Below are positions 8,880 through 29,387 of a stretch of 64,000 nt of DNA, piece by piece. The stretch comes from Patescibacteria group bacterium. Lineage in GTDB: Bacteria > Patescibacteriota > Patescibacteriia > XYB2-FULL-38-15. The position numbers and the translations under genes were made by a program. The notes under the pieces were generated by a model, which saw only the letters and a list, made by a program, of their open reading frames with translations, did no database searches and was not told where the DNA came from. The stretch is taken from positions 191,061 through 255,060 of the forward strand of contig JBGSRW010000008.1 of NCBI GenBank assembly GCA_041737355.1, given 5' to 3'. How positions within the stretch are numbered: the stretch's first letter is position 1; each line of letters starts with the position of its first letter.

Positions 8880-9914
8880 TTATTGCAGGTATTTCACCTT
8901 ATTGGCCTTGTGTTCTTCAAAATTCCTGCTGTAAATTGTCTGGCCGTCCTTCGCATGCAAGAAATACCAATAATTATTTGCCTTGGGATAAATTGCCGCC
9001 TTAATCGCCAAAAGACCGGGATTACCAATCGGTCCCTCAGGCAAACCTCTGTATTTATAAGTATTGTATGGAGAATCTATTTTCAAATCGTCCAAACTGG
9101 GCTGAGTTTCGTATTTTCCCGTCGCATAATTTACCGTGGCATCAGATTGTAAGGCAATCCCCTCGTCTATTCTCCTCCAAAAAATATCCGAAACCATTGC
9201 CATGTCGTTACCTACGGCTTCTTTTTCCAAAATAGAAGCCATGGTAATTATTTCAAAAATTGTTTTTTTCTGTTTTATAATCTCTTCTTTCAATTCAGCC
9301 GATAATTTCTCACCAAAATTATTCAGCATTTTTTTTATTATGTGTTTAGCCAAATCATTTTCTTCACCAGCCTCGGACCGAAGCTCGGGCGGCAGTTTGG
9401 CATAAATTCTATAAGTATCCGGAAAAAGAAAACCTTCAAGCCCAGCCCCGCCCGGCCTATCTTTCAGAAAATCATAATCCGTCTCGCTCGCCTTAAAATT
9501 TTCTAATCCTTTAAGAAAAATTTCTTCACTTAAAATATTTTCCTTTTCCAGATATTTCCCTATCTCCCCGTTATTCCACCCTTCAAGTATTTTTATATCC
9601 CTCTCGTCGGGGCCGCTTGTTTTCGTCAAAACGTCCGCAATTTCCCAAAGGCGCATATTTTTGCGGAGATTATGCTCACCGGCCTGAAAATTGCTTTGAA
9701 TTTTTTTTAGCCAAACGTATGTTTCAAAAAATATTTTGTTCCTGACGAATCCTTCTTTTTCAAGATTTTGACTTATAGTATTAACTCCCTCGCCTTTTGC
9801 TATAACAAAAATTTTCTCGCCAGACTCCCCGCTCGGCGGAGTAAGTAAAAACCAAACGACGGCAGCGACGGCGACTATGATTGCTAAAGAAAAAATTTTT
9901 TTCATATTTATCAA
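8880..9914 (-). CDS. mltG: Endolytic murein transglycosylase MltG (YceG family)
   Basis: 344 aa. N-terminal TM, then the conserved block LQSDATVNYATGKYETQPSLDDLKIDSPYNTYKYRGLPEGPIGNPG. Hairpin terminator ggttgtcgtcaacc plus T-run downstream at about 8835-8865. Confidence 0.8.
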   Translation of the reverse strand: MINMKKIFSLAIIVAVAAVVWFLLTPPSGESGEKIFVIAKGEGVNTISQNLEKEGFVRNKIFFETYVWLKKIQSNFQAGEHNLRKNMRLWEIADVLTKTSGPDERDIKILEGWNNGEIGKYLEKENILSEEIFLKGLENFKASETDYDFLKDRPGGAGLEGFLFPDTYRIYAKLPPELRSEAGEENDLAKHIIKKMLNNFGEKLSAELKEEIIKQKKTIFEIITMASILEKEAVGNDMAMVSDIFWRRIDEGIALQSDATVNYATGKYETQPSLDDLKIDSPYNTYKYRGLPEGPIGNPGLLAIKAAIYPKANNYWYFLHAKDGQTIYSRNFEEHKANKVKYLQ

Positions 9915-10993
9915 ATAAATTTTTTTAATTTTCTTTTTTCCAATTCTTCAACTATGCTTTTTACGTCGGCCGATCTTTCTTTCGGGCAAACCAACAACGC
10001 ATCTTCGGTTAAAACTACGACCATGCCGTCCAGGCCGACTGTCGCGATTAATTTATCTTTCGGGCCGTAAATCAAAGAATTTTTCGTGTCCAACGCGACA
10101 GTTTGCCCCTCAACCACATTGCCGCGGCCGTCCTGCCCGATTATTCCGGCGAGAACGTGCCATTTTCCAAGATCGCTCCATCCAATCTTTTCCGGAACAA
10201 TAACGGCGATTTTAGGAGCTTTTTTTGTGATGGCAGTTTCAATAGTAATTTTCTCCAGATTAGAGTAATTTCTTACGTCTTGTCCAGCCACTATTCCTTC
10301 ACATATCGCATATGTTTTTGGCTGAAATTCTCTGAACAAATCAAGAATCGTCCCGAGTTTCCAGATATACATTCCCGTATGGCAAAAATATTTTTTTGAT
10401 TTAATTATTCTTTTACATCTGGAAACATCCGGCTTCTCAATCCATTCGGCAACCTGAAAAATTTTTCCTTCTCCGTTCCCGGCCATTTTTTTTCCTGCCC
10501 CTATGTAGCTGTACCCCATATCGGGGTAAACTGGTTTTACGGCTGGCGTAATAATATATCCAGAATTTTTTTTCAAAAATTTTTCAGCCGCACGGAGCAT
10601 GCCGTAGAAAGACTTTTTGTTTGAAATATAATCGTCTGACGGCAAACTGGCAACAATAATATCCTCACCGAATCTTTTTGCTAAAACGCAACTTTCCAAG
10701 CAAATTGCCGGACCAGTATTTTTGGCGGCCGGCTCGGAAATAATATTATTATTTTTTATTTCCTTAATTTCTTTTTTTAATTTTCCCGCCATACCACGGC
10801 TCACGGAAATAAAAAGATCGTCTTTCCCAGCCAAGAGCGGCTTTACGCGATCAACCGTATTACGAATTAAGGATTTTTCATTAGTGATCGCCTGAAATTG
10901 TTTTGGATTGTCCTTCCGGGAAATCGGCCAAAGTCTTGTTCCTGTCCCGCCGGCGCGAATAACGATTTTCATAATTAGAATATTTTTTTCCAA
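9911..10993 (-). CDS. Mannose-1-phosphate guanylyltransferase-like nucleotidyltransferase
   Basis: 360 aa. N-terminal IVIRAGGTGTRLWPISRKDNPKQF sugar-nucleotidyltransferase signature. Confidence 0.75.
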   Translation of the reverse strand: MEKNILIMKIVIRAGGTGTRLWPISRKDNPKQFQAITNEKSLIRNTVDRVKPLLAGKDDLFISVSRGMAGKLKKEIKEIKNNNIISEPAAKNTGPAICLESCVLAKRFGEDIIVASLPSDDYISNKKSFYGMLRAAEKFLKKNSGYIITPAVKPVYPDMGYSYIGAGKKMAGNGEGKIFQVAEWIEKPDVSRCKRIIKSKKYFCHTGMYIWKLGTILDLFREFQPKTYAICEGIVAGQDVRNYSNLEKITIETAITKKAPKIAVIVPEKIGWSDLGKWHVLAGIIGQDGRGNVVEGQTVALDTKNSLIYGPKDKLIATVGLDGMVVVLTEDALLVCPKERSADVKSIVEELEKRKLKKFI

Positions 10994-19080: not shown

Positions 19081-20328
19081 TTATTTTATTAACGGTTTAA
19101 TTCCTGGTAATATTTTCCCTTCCAAAAATTCAAGCATGGCTCCCCCGCCCGTGGAAATATGATCGATATATCCGGCCATACCAGTTTTTTCTATCGCCTC
19201 TATTGTCTCTCCGCCGCCAACAACCCCGAAAACCTTGCCTTTTGACCGCGCCGCGACAAGTTGACCGAGGGCGATTGACCCATGGCTGTATTTAGGAATT
19301 TCAAAATATCCCATCGGACCGTTCCAGACGATGGTCTGGGCGCGTCTTATAATTTCCGCGTACTTCCTTACCGTTTCAGGGCCAACATCCAAAAGAGCGT
19401 AAGGTTTTTTGCAAAGCTCGGCCTTCTTGCCCGGGACTTTGACTACCCAGGCTTTTTTGCCTTTGAAATCTCCGGCGACAAAATCAACCGGCAAAATTAT
19501 TTTTTTGTTGGCCAGCAATTTTTTCGCAGTTTTAATTTCTTTCTCTTCAAAGACCGAACCGCCGATGCCGTATCCGGCCGCTTTGAAAAAATTATTAACC
19601 AGCGCGCCGCCAAGAAGGATATTGTTCACTTTTTTAAGAAGATTTTCTATGACTCCGATTTTTGTGGAAATTTTCGCTCCGCCGATCATCGCCATAAATG
19701 GCTTTTTTGGCTTAGTAAGCAGCCCGCTTAAAACATTGATTTCTTTTTCCATGAGAAATCCGGCGTAGCTCGGCAAGAATTTCGTCACACCGACGATTGA
19801 GGCGTGTGCCCGATGCGCCGCGGCGAAAGCGTCATTAACGTAAATATCGGCTAAGCCCGCAAGCCCCTTGGCGAATTTCAGATCGTTTTTTTCTTCACCC
19901 GGATCAAAACGTAAATTTTCAAGCAAGATCAATTCTCCATTTGCCATGGCGTCAATTTTTTCCAAAGCTTTTTTTCCTTCCCAGTTGGCCGGAGCAATCC
20001 CTTGCATTCTTAAAATCTTGGCAAGCGCCGCGCCGACCGGTCTCAAACTCAAATCCGCTTTTATTTTTCCGCCCGGGTCGCCCAAGTGGCTTATCAAAAT
20101 AATTTTTGCTCCTGCCGCGAGAAGATAGTTTATAGTCGGAACGGCCGCGACAATTCTCGTATCGTCTGCGACAGTAATTTTTCCGCCGGCTTTTCCAAGT
20201 GGCACATTAAAATCAACCCGGAGCAAAACCTTTTTGCCCTTCAGCTCCTTAATCTCCTTTATTGTTTTGAGTTTCATAAACTTAAAATTAATACGTATAA
20301 AAATATTTTTGGTAACATTATTTCTCAC
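19081..20328 (-). CDS. pgk: Phosphoglycerate kinase
   Basis: KKVLLRVDFNVPL N-terminal signature, GGGA hinge motifs. True start probably the internal MKLKTIKE at about 20277. Confidence 0.9.
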   Translation of the reverse strand: MRNNVTKNIFIRINFKFMKLKTIKEIKELKGKKVLLRVDFNVPLGKAGGKITVADDTRIVAAVPTINYLLAAGAKIILISHLGDPGGKIKADLSLRPVGAALAKILRMQGIAPANWEGKKALEKIDAMANGELILLENLRFDPGEEKNDLKFAKGLAGLADIYVNDAFAAAHRAHASIVGVTKFLPSYAGFLMEKEINVLSGLLTKPKKPFMAMIGGAKISTKIGVIENLLKKVNNILLGGALVNNFFKAAGYGIGGSVFEEKEIKTAKKLLANKKIILPVDFVAGDFKGKKAWVVKVPGKKAELCKKPYALLDVGPETVRKYAEIIRRAQTIVWNGPMGYFEIPKYSHGSIALGQLVAARSKGKVFGVVGGGETIEAIEKTGMAGYIDHISTGGGAMLEFLEGKILPGIKPLIK

Positions 20329-20575
20329 CTTCTATTTCTTCGAGTTCCCATGACGGCTTATCAATTTTTTCCACCATGATTTCGGCGTTTTTTGCCAAAC
20401 TATCTTTTGCCAAAAGATGGATGTTAAATTTTAAATTTTCCGGATCGATTTCCGAACCGTGTTCAATAACGCTTCCCAAACCGATTTTAATTTTTGTCAC
20501 TTCCTTGAGGCCGTTCTGCTTGGCATGCTCCAAAACCATTTTTAAAATTCTGTCGGCTTCGTGTAAATCGTGCAT
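20318..20575 (-). CDS. HypA-like hydrogenase maturation protein lacking the zinc-finger
   Basis: 85 aa. N-terminus MHDLHEADRILKMVLEHAK matches the HypA MHE..S nickel-binding N-terminus, but no CxxC...CxxC zinc site is present. Immediately downstream of hydA. Confidence 0.45.
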   Translation of the reverse strand: MHDLHEADRILKMVLEHAKQNGLKEVTKIKIGLGSVIEHGSEIDPENLKFNIHLLAKDSLAKNAEIMVEKIDKPSWELEEIEGEK

Positions 20576-20576
20576 A

Positions 20577-21860
20577 TTAATGTGTCGCGCAGGTCATGCA
20601 AGGATCGTAAGCGCGAACCATCATATTGATTTTCCACTTTCTGTCGCGCTCGTCTTTGACCCTCGCTTCGCTTAAATATTTTTTTAAATCGTTTTCCAAA
20701 TTGTCCAAAAATTGGGCGGTCGGCGTAATGATGTTGCAGGCGCGAATCACCCCGTATTTGTCGATTTTGTAATAATGATAAAGCGTTCCGCGCGGTGCCT
20801 CGGTGGCTGCCAGCCCTTCGCCATTTTTCATTGTATATTTCACGGATAAAATTCTTGATTTTTCCTTAAGATATTCTCCAAGCAGTTTTTTAACTTCCTC
20901 AACGCAGCTAACTAATTCCACCGCCTGGGCGTAAATATTGTGGAAAGTATTATAAGTCAAAACTTTTTCGCCCGCCGATTTTTCAAAAAACGGCAAAAAC
21001 TTTTTTGCTTCGCTGCCGAGATTTTTATGGCTCAAATTAAGCCGGGCAATCGCCCCGAGCATAAAACTTTTTCCCTCGTGGCTGGCGCGTTTTGTCGGGT
21101 CGTCTTCGGATTGTTTTTCTGAAAGTTCTTTATAAAATTCTTCCACTGAAGTTTTCGGCTGAACGCTTGAACCCATTTTCCCGTCGTAAAAAGCGTACTC
21201 GCGCGGCGAAACTAGTCCAGCAAATTCAACCTTGCGTTCGTATTTCGGATAATCAAGGGCGCGGAAAAATTTTGCCACGCTGATTGCCGCCGCCAAAACT
21301 TCATCCGCCTCGTCAATTAACTCCTGCAGCAATTTATCGTCGGGAATTTTCCGGAAACCGCCGATTTCCGTGGCTAGCAAATGCATATCGCGCCCGCCGA
21401 CCACGTCTTTTATTTTATTGCCAAAATCACGGATTAAAATAATCTGTTTGGCGAGATCTGGATATTTTTTAATCAAATCAATATCGCTCTCGTATTTAAA
21501 AAAGTCCGACAAGGACAAAAAGAAAAGATGGGCGGCGTGGCTCTGGATAGGCTCTGCTAAATCTAAAACTTTCCTTAGTCGCTCTGCCTGCGGTGTAATT
21601 TTCACGCCAAAGGCCTGCTCGATCGCCTTGATACTTGTAAGATTATGGGCGACTGAGCAGATTCCGCAGATGCGCGAAGTAACAATCGGCGCTTCGATAA
21701 AATGACGATCGAGAATTATTGACTCGATGAGCCGGGCTCCAATTTTTATTTTAATCTTGGCGCTTGTGATATCGCCCCGGAGCATATCGGCAAAAAAACT
21801 GGCGTGTCCCTCGATTTTCGCAAGATGTGAAATTTTTATTTTCATAATACTATTCCTCAA
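20577..21860 (-). CDS. hydA: [NiFe]-hydrogenase large (alpha) subunit, group 3-like
   Basis: N-terminal RICGICSVAH (RxCGxCxxxH) and C-terminal DPCMTCATH (DPCxxCxxH) Ni-Fe ligand motifs. 427 aa is typical of cytoplasmic group 3 enzymes. Confidence 0.9.
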   Translation of the reverse strand: MRNSIMKIKISHLAKIEGHASFFADMLRGDITSAKIKIKIGARLIESIILDRHFIEAPIVTSRICGICSVAHNLTSIKAIEQAFGVKITPQAERLRKVLDLAEPIQSHAAHLFFLSLSDFFKYESDIDLIKKYPDLAKQIILIRDFGNKIKDVVGGRDMHLLATEIGGFRKIPDDKLLQELIDEADEVLAAAISVAKFFRALDYPKYERKVEFAGLVSPREYAFYDGKMGSSVQPKTSVEEFYKELSEKQSEDDPTKRASHEGKSFMLGAIARLNLSHKNLGSEAKKFLPFFEKSAGEKVLTYNTFHNIYAQAVELVSCVEEVKKLLGEYLKEKSRILSVKYTMKNGEGLAATEAPRGTLYHYYKIDKYGVIRACNIITPTAQFLDNLENDLKKYLSEARVKDERDRKWKINMMVRAYDPCMTCATH

Positions 21861-22608
21861 GTTTCAAAAAATCGTCTTCTGCGCCGTATGTTTCCATCAC
21901 TTCGGCCAGATATTTTTTTCCGACTAATTTTTCCAAATTTTTTATATGCTTCTTAATCTGCGGTCCGGATCCAGGAAGCGGCCCGCGGCAGCCGTAGCAG
22001 AATCTTTTGCTCCTAAGACAAACCGCCTTACATCCGCCAAGCGTAATCGGCCCCAAACATGGTTCACCTTTTTGCAGGAGGCACTCATATCCTAGCGTCT
22101 GGCATTCAAAACAGATTGGGCGGACGGGAATTTTCGGTTTCCGGCCAAAAGCTAAATCAGAAACTATCCGGTAAAATTCGTCCTGGTCAATCGGGCAACC
22201 GGGAACGGCGTAATCAACTTCTACCACCTTCCAGAGCGGCACGACGGCCGGATTTTCAATCCGCTGGTATTTTGGGTAAACATATTTAACTTTTTCTTTT
22301 TTCCCATGTTCGGTATAATTTTTTATTTCCTGAACACCGCCCAAATGGGCACAGGAACCGATCGCTACTAAAATTTTCGATTTCTTCCGCAATTCTTTTA
22401 GATATTTAAAATCTTCATGGGTGAGCGGCGTGCCTTCAACCAACGCCACGTCGTATTTCGGTCTCTCCCGCTTTTCCTCGGCCCAGGCAAAATTTCCCAA
22501 ATCAAAAATCTGAAAAAGATCGAGCATTCTTTTCCCCAAATTCAGGATCTCAACCTGGCATCCCTCGCAGCAAGTCATGCTGGCAATCGCAAGCGTCGGT
22601 TTTTTCAT
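21850..22608 (-). CDS. hydD: [NiFe]-hydrogenase small (delta) subunit
   Basis: Starts MKKPTLAIASMTCCEGCQVE. Cys clusters for proximal/medial FeS clusters. Overlaps hydA by 11 nt. Confidence 0.85.
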   Translation of the reverse strand: MKKPTLAIASMTCCEGCQVEILNLGKRMLDLFQIFDLGNFAWAEEKRERPKYDVALVEGTPLTHEDFKYLKELRKKSKILVAIGSCAHLGGVQEIKNYTEHGKKEKVKYVYPKYQRIENPAVVPLWKVVEVDYAVPGCPIDQDEFYRIVSDLAFGRKPKIPVRPICFECQTLGYECLLQKGEPCLGPITLGGCKAVCLRSKRFCYGCRGPLPGSGPQIKKHIKNLEKLVGKKYLAEVMETYGAEDDFLKLEE

Positions 22609-22611
22609 AAA

Positions 22612-23115
22612 CTATTTTAATAATTCAACTATTTTTTCTCCAAAACTTCGCGCCGCGTCCGGTCCTGAAGCGGTAATAATTTTCCCGTCGGCCTCTACTG
22701 GCGCGCCGGTGTATTCCGCCCCGCCCGCCGCCAGAGTTTCTTCCTCGTCGGGCGTCGAAGTCGCTTTCACCCCCGAGAGAAGGCCGGCTTTGGCCAAAAT
22801 CGCCGGAGCAAGGCAAATTGCCGCGACAATTTTCCCGGCATCAAAAAACTCCCGCGCCAGATCATGAACCCTCTCGTCATCAAGATAAACTTCCGCGCCC
22901 CGTCCGCCAACCAAAACTATCGCCGAAAAATCATCAAGCTCCGCGTCGTCAACCGTCAGATCCGGCATTACTGTTCCGCCGAGCCGCCCTTTTGCCAAAG
23001 TCAATTCCTGGCTCGCGACCTCGACATCAATCCCTTTTTTTATAAAAACATCCCTCGGTTCAAAAAATTCCTCATCACGAAAATCTTTTTGCGCGACAAC
23101 CATTAAAATTTTCAT
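22612..23115 (-). CDS. DJ-1/PfpI family protein
   Basis: 167 aa. AICLAPAILAKAG nucleophile-elbow region typical of DJ-1/PfpI. Confidence 0.75.
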   Translation of the reverse strand: MKILMVVAQKDFRDEEFFEPRDVFIKKGIDVEVASQELTLAKGRLGGTVMPDLTVDDAELDDFSAIVLVGGRGAEVYLDDERVHDLAREFFDAGKIVAAICLAPAILAKAGLLSGVKATSTPDEEETLAAGGAEYTGAPVEADGKIITASGPDAARSFGEKIVELLK

Positions 23116-23121
23116 AAAAAT

Positions 23122-24006
23122 CTATTTTATAAAAATTGAAAACAAAAATCCCAGAACCGAGAAAAAAGCCAAGGGCGGCAGGGCCGGCATGGGCGTTTTT
23201 TGCGGCTGGGTCGTGAAAAGGACATGGAGCACCACCAAACCGACAAGCGATCCGGCAATCGTGAAAACCGCGCTCTCCAAACCGTAGGAAATCGCAGAAA
23301 CCGCCAAAATCAAGGGCAAAATCAAATCCCCTGTTCCCAAAAACATAAACTCGTTGCCCGGCGCGACCTTGGACAAATTAACCGCCCAGCCCCGCCACTT
23401 CATTGGAAAAATCAGAGCCATGATTACTCCCCTCACGACCAGCTCTTTGAACATCATGACCATTTGGGCCGTTTTATAAACCGCGATGTAATCGTAAATG
23501 GAAATCAAAAATAAAATAACAAGAATCGCCGAAATAGGCAGAGACAAGCCAAAGGCGGCCCCAATGCCGGCAACCCCTAAAATAACCGCCAGATTATGGA
23601 ACCAGACGCGAGGCAGGACAAACTGGAGAACGACAAAAATTATTGCCAAGCCAACCGAAAATATTGTCGGCAAAAAAATACTGAAAACCGTCTGGGATCC
23701 TAAAAAAATTATCAAAGCGAAAATTCCCCTGAAAAAAGAACCGCCTTTTATAAATCTCAGGGAAATGATCAGAAGAATCGTGGCAATAACAAAAGAAATC
23801 AAGAATTCCCAAAGAGAGGTGGCTATTTTTATTTCTGCGAATGCCTCATAGCTCATCAAGCGCATGGCGGCCCAAAGCCCGATGATCTGAACCAGGCCGA
23901 AAACAACCAATTCCTGAAATAAAAATTTGCCTTTGAAGACGGGCGAAACGGGCATGATTTTAATCTTAAATTCTGGTTGATTAAACTTAACTTTATTATA
24001 GCACAT
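23122..24006 (-). CDS. Presenilin / signal-peptide-peptidase-like GxGD intramembrane aspartyl protease
   Basis: 294 aa, about 8-9 TM helices. YD motif (ISIYDYIAV), GxGD motif (FLGTGDLILPL) and a C-terminal PAL motif (MPALPPLAFF), in the order characteristic of the A22 family. Confidence 0.55.
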   Translation of the reverse strand: MCYNKVKFNQPEFKIKIMPVSPVFKGKFLFQELVVFGLVQIIGLWAAMRLMSYEAFAEIKIATSLWEFLISFVIATILLIISLRFIKGGSFFRGIFALIIFLGSQTVFSIFLPTIFSVGLAIIFVVLQFVLPRVWFHNLAVILGVAGIGAAFGLSLPISAILVILFLISIYDYIAVYKTAQMVMMFKELVVRGVIMALIFPMKWRGWAVNLSKVAPGNEFMFLGTGDLILPLILAVSAISYGLESAVFTIAGSLVGLVVLHVLFTTQPQKTPMPALPPLAFFSVLGFLFSIFIK

Positions 24007-24042
24007 TTCGGGAACCTCTTAAAACTGGTATAATTTTATCGT

Positions 24043-24669
24043 ATGCTATTAGAAAACAGGGCTGAAGCAGGCCAAAAATTGGCTGAATTGCTGAAACAAT
24101 TCAAAGACGCCAAAGAAACAATAATCATCGCCTTGCCGCGCGGCGGGGTTGTAGTCGGCTTCGAAGTGGCAAAAGAACTAAATCTCCCGCTGGATATTGT
24201 CGTGCCGCGAAAAATCGGCGCGCCGGGCAATCCCGAATTTGCCATCGGCGCCATAACAGAGTCGGGCGAAATGATTTTGAATGAAGAAGTTTTTGGAATT
24301 TCGGAAAGTTATTTGAAAAGCGAGACGGAAAAGGAAAGGGCCGAGGCGGAACGGAGATTAAGACTCTACCGCGGCAGCCGTCTGCCGCTTGATTTAGAAA
24401 ACAAAACCGTTATCCTGATTGACGACGGCCTGGCCACCGGGCTTACCATGCGGGCGGCTATTTCGAGCGTCAAAAAAATGAAGGCGAAAAAAATTATTGT
24501 CGCCGTGCCAATTGCTCCGCCCGAGACAGTGGAATTGATAAAAAAAGAAACTGATGAAATATTTTATCTTGAGGCTCCCCTGCTCTTCGGCGCCGTCGGG
24601 GCGTTTTACAAAGAATTCGGCCAGACGACTGATGAAGAAGTGATTGATTTGTTGAAAAAATCTGAATAG
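24043..24669 (+). CDS. Type I phosphoribosyltransferase-domain protein
   Basis: 208 aa. PRPP-binding loop VILIDDGLATGLTM. Two PRTase-fold halves. Confidence 0.7.
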   Translation: MLLENRAEAGQKLAELLKQFKDAKETIIIALPRGGVVVGFEVAKELNLPLDIVVPRKIGAPGNPEFAIGAITESGEMILNEEVFGISESYLKSETEKERAEAERRLRLYRGSRLPLDLENKTVILIDDGLATGLTMRAAISSVKKMKAKKIIVAVPIAPPETVELIKKETDEIFYLEAPLLFGAVGAFYKEFGQTTDEEVIDLLKKSE

Positions 24670-24721
24670 TTTGGAAAGTAAAAACTCTCTGTCATCCTTC
24701 GCTTCGCTCCTCCAGAATGAC

Positions 24722-24752
24722 AAAAAAACTCCGCCGCTCCGCGGAGTTTTAA
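24722..24752. terminator. Bidirectional terminator hairpin
   Basis: aaaaaaactccgc-cgc-tccgcggagtttt. A-run on one side and T-run on the other, so it can serve both the + strand PRTase gene and the - strand paralog gene. Confidence 0.5.
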
Positions 24753-24878
24753 AGTTTATCCCCCAGACTTGTCCTTGCAGGTGTGGAGGTAAAAAAATCC
24801 CGCATGAAACTTGCGTAACACGCGGGAAAGCAGCAGTTTTGTCCAAGAGACCTAGAAGGGCCTAGGTTTCAAGAACCA

Positions 24879-25487
24879 CTACTTGTGGACGGCCAAGAAC
24901 CGGTAATGATCGCTCCATTCGATGCCGACCCAGAGTACGAAAAGGTGCCGCTCGTTGAGGCGCCAGTCGAGACAGGCGAAGAAGCGGCCGCCGTGCCGAT
25001 CCATGAAGTGCGAGCCGAGAGCCACGATCCCGAACTCCTTCTGGAGCTCGGGACGAGCGGCGCCGAGGGCCAAGAGCTCTTCGATCTTGGCCGGACGGAG
25101 GCCGCGACGGGCGAGTTCCGCGAGAATTTCGTCGGTCGAGGCCATCTTGTTCATGTGAACGAGGACGAGCTCGCGGAGGACCTTGCCCTCGCCCGAGATC
25201 GGGAAGAACCCGGGGGTGATGTCATCGTTCACGAAGTCGTAGCGGCCGGAGGCGATCATTGCCTCGAGGCTCTGACCATAGTCGACCTCGACCTTGAAGG
25301 TCGCGTCGGAAGGGAGGGCCGCCTTCACCATGGCGATTTCCGCCTGGCCCTTGACGAGAGGCAGCAACCGCGCGAGCAGGTCTCCTTCGGAGAGCCGCTT
25401 CACGTCGGCGTTGGTCCAGCCGTTCCGGCCGAAAGCCATTGCCAGCTCATGGGCCTGGCCAGTTGTCATCTTGAACTCGTCACTCAT
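24879..25487 (-). CDS. Hypothetical protein, paralog family member 1 (GC-rich cassette B)
   Basis: 202 aa. Shares the block GRYDFVNDDIT ... RGLRPAKIEELLALGA.RPE.QKEFGIVALGS ... RFLAV with the protein at 42762-43395. Confidence 0.5.
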   Translation of the reverse strand: MSDEFKMTTGQAHELAMAFGRNGWTNADVKRLSEGDLLARLLPLVKGQAEIAMVKAALPSDATFKVEVDYGQSLEAMIASGRYDFVNDDITPGFFPISGEGKVLRELVLVHMNKMASTDEILAELARRGLRPAKIEELLALGAARPELQKEFGIVALGSHFMDRHGGRFFACLDWRLNERHLFVLWVGIEWSDHYRFLAVHK

Positions 25488-25547
25488 GACTTGTTCTCTT
25501 TCTTTCTCGCAACCGATTCAATCCGAACCCCGTTGCTGTCTTTGGCC

Positions 25548-25564
25548 GAGAGAAATTCCCAGCC
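25548..25564 (-). promoter_or_regulatory. Conserved 17-nt leader motif (minus-strand GGCTGGGAATTTCTCTC), copy 1
   Basis: Identical 17-mer also present at 43522-43538, upstream of the paralogous gene. Lies in the 5' leader of 24879-25487. A candidate minus-strand TTGACA sits at 25597-25602. Confidence 0.4.
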
Positions 25565-25659
25565 AACGAATTATTAAATCATTCTTTGGATATTTTGTCA
25601 ACACCTTTTTAAATAAAAAAGAGCTAGCTTCAAAAGCCAGCTCAAGGAAAAGAAAAGAA

Positions 25660-26418
25660 TCAGTTGCGCTTGCCGTTCTCGGCTATCTTCCGGCAGGCGG
25701 TGAGAGTCGCTTCGGTCCAGTGTTCAAGCCGGCGCGCTTCATTGAGCGTGATGACTTCGACTACCCTGCCCCAGTGAAAAGCAACCAAGTCGCCAGCTCT
25801 GATACGCGGAATAATCTGCGGATCGCGCCGGACAAGACGCTTTTTTTCTTTTTCTTCCAGCTCTGCCAGGAATCTGTTACCCTCGTGCTTCAGAGATCTT
25901 GCCGAAACGGTAAGCTCCGGCCCCTTGCCAACCGAGACGACTTTTCCCCAGCCGATGCGACAAAGCTCCCAGCCGACCGATTCGCGATCCACCTGACCAG
26001 AAATTCCGCCGATTGCGAGAACATGAAAACTGTGGTGCGGCCGGTGCTGATAGTGGACGTGGTCCGTGGTTTCTTTCGCTGCCGCCTCGGTCATCCGGCC
26101 CTCGCCGACAAAACCGAATATCAGCTCCCTCAGATCTTCCGGCCGGACACGGCCGAGGAGTTCGTTGCCAATCCAGTAGGCGTCAACCACGCGGTCGTCA
26201 AGCCAGTCTTCGATTCCGTTTGCCGCGGCAATGAGCTTCAGGTAGGCCGTGGCCGCGGTAAACTGCCCCAAGAGCCGCCTTGCATGATTGTCGTCGACCT
26301 TGCTCTTGGTCGTGAGATACTGGTATAGCTTGCCCTTCTCACTGCCCCGCGGCCCGCAAAGGCCGAGTTCGTTCGGGTAAAGCGCGTAACGCGCCGCCCG
26401 CTCGTATTTCTTTCCCAT
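25660..26418 (-). CDS. Hypothetical His-rich protein translationally coupled to hypC (GC-rich)
   Basis: 252 aa. ATG is 1 nt after the hypC stop, and the hypC 3' end (gggggagaggaggaaaaaa) provides its RBS. Contains a His cluster HVHYQHRPHHSFH. GC-rich, unlike hypC. Confidence 0.5.
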   Translation of the reverse strand: MGKKYERAARYALYPNELGLCGPRGSEKGKLYQYLTTKSKVDDNHARRLLGQFTAATAYLKLIAAANGIEDWLDDRVVDAYWIGNELLGRVRPEDLRELIFGFVGEGRMTEAAAKETTDHVHYQHRPHHSFHVLAIGGISGQVDRESVGWELCRIGWGKVVSVGKGPELTVSARSLKHEGNRFLAELEEKEKKRLVRRDPQIIPRIRAGDLVAFHWGRVVEVITLNEARRLEHWTEATLTACRKIAENGKRN

Positions 26419-26652
26419 CTATTTTTTCCTCCTCTCCCCCTGATTTTGGAATTCGTCCAGGACGGCAAGGCAATTTTTCGCCTCCTCTTCGGAAATTTTT
26501 TTCATTCCAATGCTGCCTTGCACCAATATCCAATCACCTTTTGCCGCTTCCGGCAAGAGTGAAGTGTCAATATCAAAAACTTTGCCGCCATTTTTAACGG
26601 CGGCTTTATTTTTCTTGATTTTTTCAATTTTACAAGGAATACCGAAGCACAT
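26419..26652 (-). CDS. hypC: Hydrogenase maturation chaperone HypC/HupF
   Basis: 77 aa starting MCFGIPCKIEKI (the essential N-terminal Cys2 motif MC[LF][GA]IP). Confidence 0.8.
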   Translation of the reverse strand: MCFGIPCKIEKIKKNKAAVKNGGKVFDIDTSLLPEAAKGDWILVQGSIGMKKISEEEAKNCLAVLDEFQNQGERRKK

Positions 26653-26678: not shown

Positions 26679-27593
26679 CTAATGGCTTGTTGTTATATCT
26701 ATTTCCATCTTTTTAAATTTTGAAAATAAACCCAGAACCGCGGCTACTCCCAAAAACATCAGCAAGCTTCCGCTAAAAATCTGCCAGTCGAAAATTCCTT
26801 TTTGCGCCATTTCTAATAAACTTGTAATCGGCGCGCCGAGCGACAAGATGCAGACAGCCGACGAAACCGGAATATATTTCAGGCCTGCATACCAGGTCAA
26901 AACATAACCTAAAAGAAAAATTGCCGTTATCCAAATCCAGCTTAATTCCGCTGCACCCATGCTTCCGAGCAGCTTCATCTGCCCGGTCGCCGCCCAAAAA
27001 ATCAAAATAAATAAAAATCCGAAAAACATTCTCCCCCAGGCAACAATTTTCGGTGAAATATTTTCCAGGGCTTTTTTTGAAATGATTTGTTCGGCGGACC
27101 AAAATAGTGTGGCAGCCAAGACCAGTAATTCACCGTAGCCGAATTGAAATCCATCAAAAATTTTTAAAAGCAGGGCGCTGCCGATCAAAATAAAAAACGC
27201 CCCGGTCATCAGCTTTTTGCTTACTTTCTCCTTCAAAAATATCGCCTCCAAAACTATCACGTAAATAAAAAGTGTTTTGTGGATAAAAGATGTACTCGCC
27301 CCGCTTGTTAGGGATAAACCTTTGAAAAAAAACAGAAAAGGAATGCTTCCGCCGAACAGACCAATCAAGATTAAAGTCAACCATTCTTTAACCTTAAATT
27401 TCGCCAACAATTTCCACTCCCTGAATAAAAAAATCAAGCAAAGCAAAACAACTGCCACGAGCAAATTTTTCAAACCGGCAAAAATATACGGACTAATAAC
27501 CTTAACCCCGAATTGATTAATAAAAATAGAAACACCGGAAATAACTGCTGTTCCCAGAACCAATAAATATCCTTTTTTGGTATTCATAATCAC
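26679..27593 (-). CDS. EamA/DMT-family transporter
   Basis: 304 aa, 10 TM helices in two 5-TM halves. Confidence 0.7.
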   Translation of the reverse strand: MIMNTKKGYLLVLGTAVISGVSIFINQFGVKVISPYIFAGLKNLLVAVVLLCLIFLFREWKLLAKFKVKEWLTLILIGLFGGSIPFLFFFKGLSLTSGASTSFIHKTLFIYVIVLEAIFLKEKVSKKLMTGAFFILIGSALLLKIFDGFQFGYGELLVLAATLFWSAEQIISKKALENISPKIVAWGRMFFGFLFILIFWAATGQMKLLGSMGAAELSWIWITAIFLLGYVLTWYAGLKYIPVSSAVCILSLGAPITSLLEMAQKGIFDWQIFSGSLLMFLGVAAVLGLFSKFKKMEIDITTSH

Positions 27594-27606: not shown

Positions 27607-28425
27607 TTAAATCGCTCCGCGGATATCTTTTATTTGGTCCCAGGAAAAAACCGGACCGTCCTGGCAGACAAAGAAACTTCCGACCGCGCAATGGTTGCAA
27701 ACCCCGACCCCGCAGTGCATCCGCCGTTCGAGTGACATAAAAATATCTTCGTCTTTGAACCCTGCTTTATTTAATTTTTCCAGAACAAATTTATACATAA
27801 CCGGCGGGCCGCAGAGAAACGCGACTGGGTTTTCGGCAAGCGGCGCCTTGTCAAATAAAACCGTAACCAAACCCTGAATTATTGGACAAGATAATTTAAA
27901 TTTATCCGTCGGCTTATCAAGACACAAATGAAAATCAACATCATTTTTCATCCATGAATCGTATTCTTTCCGGAAAAGCAGGTCGTCTTCGGTTTTTGCC
28001 CCGTAAAAAATCTGGACTTTTTTATATTGTTTCCTGTTTTTTACGATTTCAAAAATCGCCGTCCGGACCGTTTCAAGGCCAAGTCCGCCAACAACGATTA
28101 AGAGATTCCTCTTCTTCGCCAGTTCCGCGGGAAACGGCCGGCCGTACGGCCCGCGGACGCCGACTCTGTCCCCCGCCTTGAGGGAATGCATTGCCGCGGT
28201 TACCGTTCCGACATTTCTCGCGCAAACCTGAAATTTATTTTTTTCTGACGCGTCGGAGCAAAGGCAAAAGGGCGCCTCGCCAAATCCCGGCAAAGATATT
28301 TCCACGAACTGACCCGACTGGTATTTGAAATTTTTTGGCGCTTCAAGGGTAAACAATTTTGAATTTGAACCCTCGTCCTCGATTTTCAAAATCCTTACCG
28401 TTTGCGGCGCGTATTGATTTTTCAT
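27607..28425 (-). CDS. hydG: Hydrogenase gamma subunit (FAD/NAD(P)H-binding, [2Fe-2S]; PyrK-like)
   Basis: 272 aa. Ferredoxin-reductase-like FAD/NAD domains. C-terminal CGVGVCNHCAVG [2Fe-2S] motif. Confidence 0.8.
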   Translation of the reverse strand: MKNQYAPQTVRILKIEDEGSNSKLFTLEAPKNFKYQSGQFVEISLPGFGEAPFCLCSDASEKNKFQVCARNVGTVTAAMHSLKAGDRVGVRGPYGRPFPAELAKKRNLLIVVGGLGLETVRTAIFEIVKNRKQYKKVQIFYGAKTEDDLLFRKEYDSWMKNDVDFHLCLDKPTDKFKLSCPIIQGLVTVLFDKAPLAENPVAFLCGPPVMYKFVLEKLNKAGFKDEDIFMSLERRMHCGVGVCNHCAVGSFFVCQDGPVFSWDQIKDIRGAI

Positions 28426-29387
28426 AATTTTGCCAGAACTTTAAAAATATTTATTCCCACCGGACAAACCTTGGCGCAGCGGCCGCAGCCGACGCAGCCC
28501 ATAATTTGCAATTGGTCGGGAATTCGGACGAATTTATGGTAATACCAGAAATGGATCCGGTCGGCGGTAGTTTTTAAAAACTTTTGCCCGCCCCCCACTT
28601 CGGAAAAATCATTGTAAAAACAGGCTCCCCAGCTCCGCTTTCTGACTCCGCCATCGTCTGTCAGATTTGGCTGATCTTTAACATCAAAACAAAAACAGGT
28701 CGGACAAACCATGGTACATTTTCCGCACTCAATACAACGCGCCCCGAGATCGTCTTCCCAAATTTCTTTTTTATAAATCTTTTTCAGGGCGTCGCGGTAT
28801 TTTATCATTTGCGGATCCTTTCCTTCTTCTCTTATCGGCCCGGAAAATTGGATATGCTCGTAATCCTTGTAACCGAATTCATCAAGAATCTTTTGCCCAT
28901 CCTCCGAACCGGTATAAACAAAATAATTTTTCCCTTGGACTTCAAGGAAAATATCAAACTGCAGATGTTCTAAAATATCTTCCTCGTATTTAATATGAAA
29001 AAGATTATGCTCGGCCTCGGCAGGAATCAAACTCTGCCCGACAATCAAAGTATTTTTCATCCGCTCCTGATACCAGAGATCTTTTTCGAAAATATGGTTG
29101 AACAAAACTATTGCTTTGAGATCAATCGGATTTATCCCAAAAATTACCTGCTTCCTCGCTTTCTTCACTTCGATCATCCTGTCTTTTTTGTATTCAAAAA
29201 TAACTTCTTCCGGCGGCAGCAAAAACCGTTTGAAAGAATGAAGCGGCGGTTCTTTAACGAGCTTCACTTTTGAGGCGTCTTCAACTTTGGCGTAAGCCAC
29301 TTCGTCTTTTTGTTTTTCCGGTGCGAAAACATCATATCTCCGCTTCATCAAAAAACTAATAAATTTTTGCAGTTGTCCGTGGGTCAT
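28422..29387 (-). CDS. hydB: Hydrogenase beta subunit (4Fe-4S ferredoxin-type)
   Basis: 321 aa. CIECGKCTMVCPTCFCFD and CVGCGRCAKVCPVG iron-sulfur motifs. Overlaps hydG by 4 nt. Confidence 0.8.
   Translation of the reverse strand: MTHGQLQKFISFLMKRRYDVFAPEKQKDEVAYAKVEDASKVKLVKEPPLHSFKRFLLPPEEVIFEYKKDRMIEVKKARKQVIFGINPIDLKAIVLFNHIFEKDLWYQERMKNTLIVGQSLIPAEAEHNLFHIKYEEDILEHLQFDIFLEVQGKNYFVYTGSEDGQKILDEFGYKDYEHIQFSGPIREEGKDPQMIKYRDALKKIYKKEIWEDDLGARCIECGKCTMVCPTCFCFDVKDQPNLTDDGGVRKRSWGACFYNDFSEVGGGQKFLKTTADRIHFWYYHKFVRIPDQLQIMGCVGCGRCAKVCPVGINIFKVLAKL

Follow-up and report, generated by a model that had tools for sequence, protein, structure and literature searches.

Maturation of [NiFe] hydrogenases is usually presented as the business of a closed set, consisting of six Hyp proteins and a protease, and the question raised by the patescibacterial locus described here is what a further gene, lying directly behind hypC and encoding a protein with a dense run of histidines, contributes to a hydrogenase operon, and whether it is native to that operon at all. 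The window analysed is a stretch of 64,000 nucleotides, in which a preliminary description had picked out a 252-aa ORF as a candidate nickel metallochaperone, translationally coupled to hypC. The ORF list places this gene, named here after the Pfam family DUF6390 to which its product belongs, at 25660..26418 on the minus strand. As that description held, the gene begins right after the hypC stop, with its ATG (26418-26416) abutting the TAG (26421-26419) at a spacer of 0, and the final hypC codons do supply its ribosome-binding site, a Shine-Dalgarno sequence (GGAGAGGAGG at 26437-26428) situated 9 nt upstream of the ATG. The reported 7 histidines in 13 residues are likewise present in the segment HVHYQHRPHHSFH (residues 120-132; 26061-26023), which holds 7 of the 10 histidines of the whole protein. 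The gene is the last in an operon of order beta (Fer4_22)-gamma (FAD/NAD/Fe-S)-EamA-hypC-DUF6390, with intergenic gaps of -4, 13, 26 and 0 nt, and translational coupling would make the DUF6390 protein together with HypC in the window. The features of the locus are as follows.

25660..26418, minus strand: DUF6390 gene, last in the operon (ORF; PF19927; homologues; AlphaFold)
25966..26418, minus strand: predicted N-terminal all-alpha domain, residues 1-151, with C21 (26356-26358) and PHHSFH
26023..26061, minus strand: His cluster HVHYQHRPHHSFH, residues 120-132, in which the family motif is PHHSFH alone (26023-26040)
25717..25965, minus strand: predicted HypC-like OB-barrel, residues 152-234, with C153 (25960-25962) and H215 (25774-25776)
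After the OB-barrel, up to residue 251: predicted C-terminal helix of the DUF6390 protein
26428..26437, minus strand: Shine-Dalgarno sequence GGAGAGGAGG in the hypC 3' end, read from the sequence
26419..26652, minus strand: hypC, 77 aa, begins MC (PF01455 E 2e-16; TIGR00074 above cutoff)
26679..27593, minus strand: EamA/DMT permease, of all neighbours the one most constantly found with DUF6390 (PF00892 E 3e-34)
27607..29387, minus strand: hydrogenase gamma (FAD/NAD/Fe-S) and beta (Fer4_22) genes, operon start (Pfam)
25621..25643, minus strand: intrinsic-terminator-like hairpin and T-run, GAGCTGGCTTTTGAAGCTAGCTC TTTTTTATTT, 17 nt past the DUF6390 stop
20318..22608, minus strand: second hydrogenase unit, with small subunit, large subunit and a short hypA (Pfam, translations)
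21850-22608, minus strand: hydrogenase small subunit (Oxidored_q6; Pfam)
20577-21860, minus strand: hydrogenase large subunit (NiFeSe_Hases), terminus DPCMTCATH* (Pfam, translation)
20318-20575, minus strand: short hypA (Pfam, translation)

The [NiFe]-hydrogenase context recognised earlier is confirmed by Pfam matches to beta, gamma, small and large subunit genes in the window. Searches of the 64 kb by tblastn with E. coli queries gave no match to HypB, HypD, HypE or HypF, as had been stated, and a query search for Mrp-type HypB was likewise negative in the window; the hypA gene at 20318-20575 had been overlooked. The product of this hypA is only 85 aa long, begins MHD (compare the MHE nickel motif), and contains zero cysteines, hence it is without the zinc-finger domain of canonical HypA. 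The large subunit carries RICGIC near its N-terminus and stops exactly at DPCMTCATH*, with no cleavable C-terminal extension, which fits the absence of a maturation protease gene from the hydrogenase cluster and its flanks (tblastn of the window with HycI queries gave no match).

The hydrogenase genes are divided into two units by unrelated genes at 22612-25487, namely the 202-aa ORF, a phosphoribosyltransferase gene on the opposite strand, and genes for a signal-peptide-peptidase-like protein and a DJ-1/PfpI protein; in one relative (L002), the phosphoribosyltransferase gene is the sole gene between the two hydrogenase units. The 202-aa ORF (24879-25487, minus strand) lies just past the terminator, is very GC-rich (GC 0.63, GC3 0.84), belongs to no Pfam family, and is missing from the corresponding position in L002. 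Its 83 homologues, the named ones all from Patescibacteria and some present as two copies in a genome, led to the overlapping plus-strand ORF at 24885-25577, a gene call of a public assembly, being dropped.

The protein encoded behind hypC matches PF19927 (DUF6390) with an E value of 1.2e-45 and 156.4 bits against a cutoff of 25, over profile positions 9-239 of 244, and it contains all of the family motifs, namely C-G-P near the N-terminus, AYWIGN, PHHSFH, C-R-x-x-W-G and F-H-W-G, which are invariant or nearly so in the family alignments and in 151 representatives. The 221 homologues found for the window protein belong to a family that accounts for about 1,650 clusters (50% identity) in a set of 1.84 billion representatives and is carried by at least 580 GTDB species genomes of Patescibacteria, Chloroflexota, Actinomycetota, Bacillota, Desulfobacterota, DPANN archaea, Thermoplasmata and Methanosarcinales. 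None of the NCBIfam models matches the window protein. The ORF is a real gene, and its family is catalogued in Pfam with no assigned function. Literature searches found no paper on DUF6390 or on the combination of EamA, HypC and hydrogenase, nothing informative on hyp gene content in CPR bacteria, and no sign of a DUF6390 gene in published accounts of the Mycobacterium smegmatis Hyd3 cluster (msmeg_3931-3927). The HypC-like domain, invariant site and transporter and regulator coupling set out below are, as far as these searches show, previously undescribed.

The kinship with HypB, SlyD, UreE or Hpn that the preliminary description had proposed to look for did not materialise. The window protein has no Pfam or NCBIfam match to a P-loop NTPase and no GxxxxGK[ST] motif, and no Pfam match to an FKBP or UreE domain. 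What emerged instead was a HypC-like domain. An AlphaFold model built from 94 sequences (pLDDT 94, pTM 0.92) runs from nine helices (residues 6-153) through a beta barrel (156-223) to a long helix at the C-terminus, and the N-terminal all-alpha domain has no solved structural relative. A jackhmmer search seeded with the window HypC recruited DUF6390 proteins, the DUF6390 profile had notable matches in the PDB only to Thermococcus kodakarensis HypC (E 0.005), and profile-profile comparison with 28 neighbouring HypCs gave a probability of 91.6% (E 8e-7), aligning DUF6390 residues 152-234 with HypC residues 1-64, C153 with Cys2, and H215 with the His51 column. Sub-threshold matches to PF01455 were found in 56 of 94 DUF6390 members, the best with an E value of 1.6e-4; no other family came up nearly as often, the runners-up being DUF3701 in 7 and TOBE_2 in 4. 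Foldseek against the PDB returned nothing at E <= 0.001, with uS17-type OB folds (E ~3e-3) ranking above HypC, and the modelled fold by itself thus indicates an OB barrel, no more; assignment of the C-terminal domain to HypC draws on the combined sequence evidence, to which Foldseek adds no independent support.

Proteins of the HypC/HybG/HupF family (PF01455) are chaperones that carry Fe(CN)2CO, and DUF6390 proteins are likewise encoded in hydrogenase clusters, usually adjoining a genuine hypC. The window protein shares with them the HypC-type OB barrel, the C-terminal helix and the conserved histidine that corresponds to E. coli H51. It departs from them in its size of 252 aa, with some 150 additional N-terminal residues, in its PF01455 score of 12.6 bits against a threshold of 28.5, and in the position of the cysteine, which is internal (residue 153) rather than at position 2. 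DUF6390 also differs from HypC in its pairing with transporters and fusion to DNA-binding domains, which are not known for HypC, and in having no hypD in the window or, at the other loci, within 10 kb. DUF6390 is therefore best described, from its predicted domains, as a new architecture that includes a HypC-like domain and falls outside the HypC family proper. In this architecture the helical N-domain would pack onto the HypC-like barrel to form a cytoplasmic two-domain hydrogenase accessory protein.

Conservation of potential ligands was counted in 151 DUF6390 members with pairwise identities of at most 50%. Four residues are essentially invariant, C21 (144/145), H129 (151/151), C153 (151/151) and H215 (149/149), and two more are usually kept, H132 in 137 of 151 and H128 in 127 of 151. 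The conserved part of the His cluster thus amounts to three of its seven histidines (H128, H129 and H132), which lie in a helix of the folded domain; at H120, H122 and H125 the family has mostly K, P and A, and the extra histidines of the window protein are in part common to its own clade only. On this alignment evidence the greater part of the His run is a lineage-specific embellishment of a genuine PHHSFH motif. We infer that C21, H128, H129, H132, C153 and H215 make up one metal site, in which C21, H129, C153 and H215, together with the usually conserved H128 and H132, would most likely bind Ni(II). C153 and H215 coincide with the positions of HypC C2 and H51, the residues implicated in holding iron (PMC12134894).

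The same four invariant cysteines and histidines could instead constitute a structural zinc site of Cys2His2 type, with DUF6390 acting as a scaffold or specificity factor for folding of the large subunit. The hydrogenase context and a rigid two-domain model of pTM 0.92 would suit such a role. C153 and H215, however, match functional rather than structural residues of HypC, and a scaffold leaves the transporter pairing and DNA-binding (HTH) fusions described below unexplained, making this interpretation distinctly improbable.

The GC switch at the hypC boundary is as abrupt as had been reported: GC is 0.415 in hypC and 0.585 in the DUF6390 gene, and GC3 is 0.46 and 0.68. Amino-acid composition accounts for roughly half of this step, and codon usage at two-fold codons for the remainder. 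The share of FYMINK residues in the DUF6390 protein is 0.21, versus 0.28-0.37 in most neighbours (0.20 in DJ-1), and that of GARP residues 0.31, versus 0.19-0.26 in neighbours (0.31 in DJ-1). At non-four-fold codons GC3 is 0.61 compared with 0.29-0.42 in neighbours, whereas GC at four-fold sites is similar, at 0.73 compared with 0.50-0.72. The order EamA-hypC-DUF6390 recurs in four relatives (L002, L004, L005 and L006; 58-73% identity), in which the GC of the DUF6390 gene is 0.54-0.59 against 0.39-0.43 for the locus, and the GC excess is common to at least five related genomes. Other Patescibacteria possess DUF6390 copies of host-like GC, and a neighbour-joining tree places the window clade on a separate long branch and not inside the high-GC lineages. 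On a wider scale, the arrangements hypC-DUF6390 and hypC-EamA-DUF6390 are conserved in Patescibacteria, Chloroflexota, Actinomycetota, Bacillota, DPANN and Thermoplasmata. On the grounds of the separate long branch and the neighbour-like four-fold GC, a recent transfer from high-GC Chloroflexota or Actinomycetota is rejected.

Because gene order is conserved, and given the placement in the tree and the composition and codon basis of the GC step, the DUF6390 gene is regarded as native to the operon and of long standing there; xenologous replacement at an early date may have occurred in the window clade. The proposal that a foreign gene was fused into the hypC unit thus gives way before an order conserved across phyla and a GC excess found in at least five related genomes. 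As a side observation, the GC-biased codons persist among the window and these four relatives despite the divergence of the proteins, and in neighbour genes of the same genomes four-fold sites match at about 40-65%, values uncorrected for base composition.

A horizontally acquired, His-rich nickel storage protein of the Hpn or HypB-tail type, recently inserted behind hypC, is very hard to credit. The 7 histidines in 13 residues and the GC step at the gene boundary are what such an insertion would predict, but four of the seven histidines are unconserved, the protein is a globular, confidently folded member of its family, and its arrangement is conserved across phyla, with the same order in a relative at 65% identity. 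The tree that keeps the window clade outside high-GC lineages, and a four-fold GC near that of the neighbours, point the same way.

How DUF6390 is deployed can be judged from 81 loci other than that of the window, drawn from more than 10 phyla. Of these, 73 contain one or more hydrogenase-related genes, which bears out the co-occurrence with hydrogenase genes that the preliminary description had asked about; the eight loci without are mostly short or incomplete contigs. A [NiFe] large subunit gene is found in 58 of the 81 and hypC in 51, and an EamA permease gene lies directly upstream on the same strand in 57 (one of them fused). In Actinomycetota, Dehalococcoidia and Thermoplasmata the typical order is beta-(cNMP)-gamma-SSU-LSU-HycI-(HypA)-HypC-EamA-DUF6390, in Chloroflexia SSU-LSU-HycI-HypA-(HypB)-HypC-DUF6390, and in Patescibacteria (HypC)-EamA-DUF6390 with a small HycI-like gene behind it, with 4-nt overlaps frequent at the gene junctions. 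Some of these loci pair DUF6390 with hypC alone, with no transporter in between.

Several side observations attach to these clusters. A family of about 129 aa is encoded directly downstream of DUF6390 in 27 loci of Patescibacteria and DPANN clusters (for example L014, L020, L027, L034, L069 and L078), with sub-threshold similarity to HycI protease (E 1e-3 to 6e-3). A gene with a cyclic-nucleotide-binding domain stands between beta and gamma in L026, L032, L033, L040, L058 and L061, and also in L070, L074, L075, L077, L081 and L082. In a Limnocylindria contig (L059), two hypC-DUF6390 pairs (24-910 and 8982-10072) lie on either side of the hydrogenase, a doubling which suggests that the pair is a functional unit.

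The transporters associated with DUF6390 vary. In seven loci without EamA, the DUF6390 gene stands directly before genes for a binding protein of the SBP_bac_5 family that resembles NikA and for permeases resembling NikB/C; nickel_nikA is the best NCBIfam match of these binding proteins, with scores that in every case fall well short of the curated cutoff. Three clusters contain NiCoT (NicO) genes that carry the HX4DH motif, and in two loci (L037 and L057) NiCoT is found alongside EamA; therefore EamA need not carry nickel. P1B-type ATPases were considered as partners and rejected, being close to a few loci but weakly associated. The EamA partners possess two invariant Glu, one invariant Arg and several conserved Lys, from which a substrate is not identifiable, and the best model for the window EamA, a weak match, is that of a carboxylate/amino acid/amine transporter. 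A precedent for an EamA-family permease in metal-chelate traffic is CntI, an EamA/DMT permease of the pathway for pseudopaline, a Zn/Ni metallophore (PMC5719457); the comparison is a precedent and not a test, and, unlike the CntI system, the loci here contain no opine-synthesis genes that could be seen.

A second kind of coupling arises from gene fusion. DUF6390 members with an N-terminal DNA-binding domain include PadR, XRE (two cases), GntR and ArsR fusions, and there is one true EamA-DUF6390 fusion (L027/P0131). The PadR and XRE fusions are directly upstream of SBP_bac_5 ABC importer genes (best NCBIfam match nickel_nikA, sub-threshold). Immediately behind the PadR fusion, in the same orientation, come a gene of unknown function, one for a NikA-like binding protein and two for permeases, and the XRE fusion belongs to a locus of order SBP5-permease-permease-HypC-[XRE-DUF6390]-SBP5-permease-ATPase, beside HycI and the large subunit. 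In the ArsR case the fusion lies between NiCoT and an MFS permease, with LSU, SSU, HycI and HypA adjacent, and the GntR fusion, which lies 7 kb away from a hydrogenase small-subunit gene, precedes a PhnS/FbpA-like, rather than Nik-like, ABC system. The gene between the PadR fusion and the NikA-like binding protein encodes a 394-aa protein (L088, 2466-3650) with no Pfam or NCBIfam match, in an arrangement kept on three contigs.

Varied fusions of a domain to HTH domains are the usual signature of a ligand-sensing domain, and because DUF6390 is fused to PadR, XRE, GntR, ArsR and EamA it is taken to be a ligand-binding module. With a DNA-binding domain attached, it would regulate uptake operons in response to metal. 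The position of the HTH fusions directly upstream of NikA-like importer genes is that of a metal-sensing repressor such as NikR; the sensor domains are unrelated, DUF6390 in the one case and an ACT-like domain in NikR.

The same fusions, typical as they are of sensor domains, raise the prospect that DUF6390 solely senses a ligand and thereby regulates the transporter next to it, by trans-inhibition or gating, with the transported metabolite, not necessarily a metal, as its ligand and with no direct part in maturation. Adjacency to EamA (57 of 81 loci) is tighter than adjacency to hypC, one true fusion joins the two, and characterised EamA/DMT proteins move amino acids and metabolites, with a model of which the window EamA makes its weak match. 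Such a sensor is nonetheless improbable: a set of invariant cysteines and histidines usually points to a metal site, the loci are with few exceptions hydrogenase clusters rather than clusters of general metabolism, and DUF6390 also stands beside hypC with no transporter between them.

The complement of hyp genes around DUF6390 bears on which arm of maturation it might serve. By tblastn of the flanks, hypD, hypE and hypF were found within 10 kb of DUF6390 in none of the loci, and hypB in only four; the Mrp-type HypB query was negative in these flanks too. In four loci HypA and HypB co-occur with DUF6390, which is therefore not simply a HypB substitute. The HypCs adjoining DUF6390 have Cys2 in 53 of 54 cases, and a histidine at the E. 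coli H51 position in 17 of 54, a figure that covers HypCs beside DUF6390 only; the remainder have Q, Y, S, D, N or F, and in the alignment the window HypC has Gln at the canonical His51 position.

These observations lend themselves to an iron-side chaperone, whereby DUF6390 would be a HypC paralogue with an extra domain that carries iron or Fe(CN)2CO, or that holds the apo large subunit. Cys21 of the N-domain would then play opposite the HypC Cys2 the part of HypD Cys41; the roles of this residue and of HypC C2 and H51 have been described (PMC12134894). The HypC-like domain retains its cysteine and histidine in 100% of members, the scarcity of a His51-equivalent in the stand-alone HypCs next door fits complementation within the HypC-DUF6390 pair, and hypD, hypE and hypF are missing from the 10-kb flanks in the loci examined. 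Against this, the last three genes may sit elsewhere in these genomes, the DUF6390 cysteine lies within the chain while HypC depends for its function on a cysteine at the N-terminus, and no Fe-S motif is available to stand in for HypD. Four types of DNA-binding fusion and a constant pairing with transporters, moreover, are more easily reconciled with a diffusible ligand than with an organometallic group bound to protein, and an iron-side role is accordingly considered unlikely, if less so than the alternatives above.

The thread common to these loci is a module placed in [NiFe]-hydrogenase clusters between maturation genes (hypA, hypB, hypC) and a transporter. The reading preferred here, to which we assign a probability of about 50%, is that DUF6390 is a cytoplasmic metal-binding or metal-sensing accessory factor linking metal import to hydrogenase maturation. 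The metal is probably nickel, which we infer to be the likelier one because of the Nik-like and NiCoT neighbours; a nickel role is further favoured because there is no HypB in the window to serve nickel insertion. In outline, DUF6390 would bind the metal moved by the adjacent permease (EamA in the window, and NikA-like ABC, NiCoT or MFS systems elsewhere) and would either hand it towards HypA and the large subunit or report its availability, while the HypC-like barrel may offer HypC or the large subunit a place to dock. A sensor is as plausible here as a chaperone. There are counterpoints to nickel: what is known of the HypC fold concerns iron rather than nickel, and the Cys2His2 set could be structural zinc. 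CooT, an accessory protein of CO dehydrogenase, is a small beta-barrel protein that begins Met-Cys, has an essential Cys2 and binds Ni(II), showing that a HypC-style Cys site can serve nickel.

The earlier proposal of a nickel metallochaperone is thus upheld in part. Linkage to hydrogenase, a conserved Cys/His site and nickel-type transporter neighbours speak for it, whereas the picture of a His-rich protein resembling Hpn, HypB, SlyD or UreE has to be abandoned. Like HypA, HypB and SlyD, DUF6390 is encoded in hydrogenase clusters, has a His/Cys metal site, here a predicted one, and is proposed to supply nickel; it has no sequence or fold relation to them, shows no P-loop GTPase or FKBP domain by Pfam or NCBIfam, and in some loci has HypA and HypB beside it. 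A more far-reaching version can be advanced tentatively, in which DUF6390 is an unrecognised nickel-binding module on the HypC fold that would act as a permease-to-large-subunit chaperone replacing HypB/SlyD in minimal genomes such as the patescibacterial one analysed here, would form a new class of nickel regulators when fused to HTH domains, and would have as its constant partner a novel type of EamA/DMT transporter for nickel or a nickel chelate.

If DUF6390 does handle nickel, this would explain nickel loading in organisms without HypB, and would add a new family of metal sensors and hint at metal-related transport by EamA permeases. Were iron the metal instead, the finding would bear on carriage of the iron cofactor at loci whose HypC is without a His51-equivalent. 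With either metal, a DUF gains a testable function, and hydrogenase clusters in metagenomes may be better annotated. DUF6390 is a seventh conserved family in [NiFe]-hydrogenase operons, including those of symbiotic Patescibacteria and DPANN with very small genomes, and one that appears to reuse the HypC fold in a new architecture tied to transporters and transcription-factor fusions.
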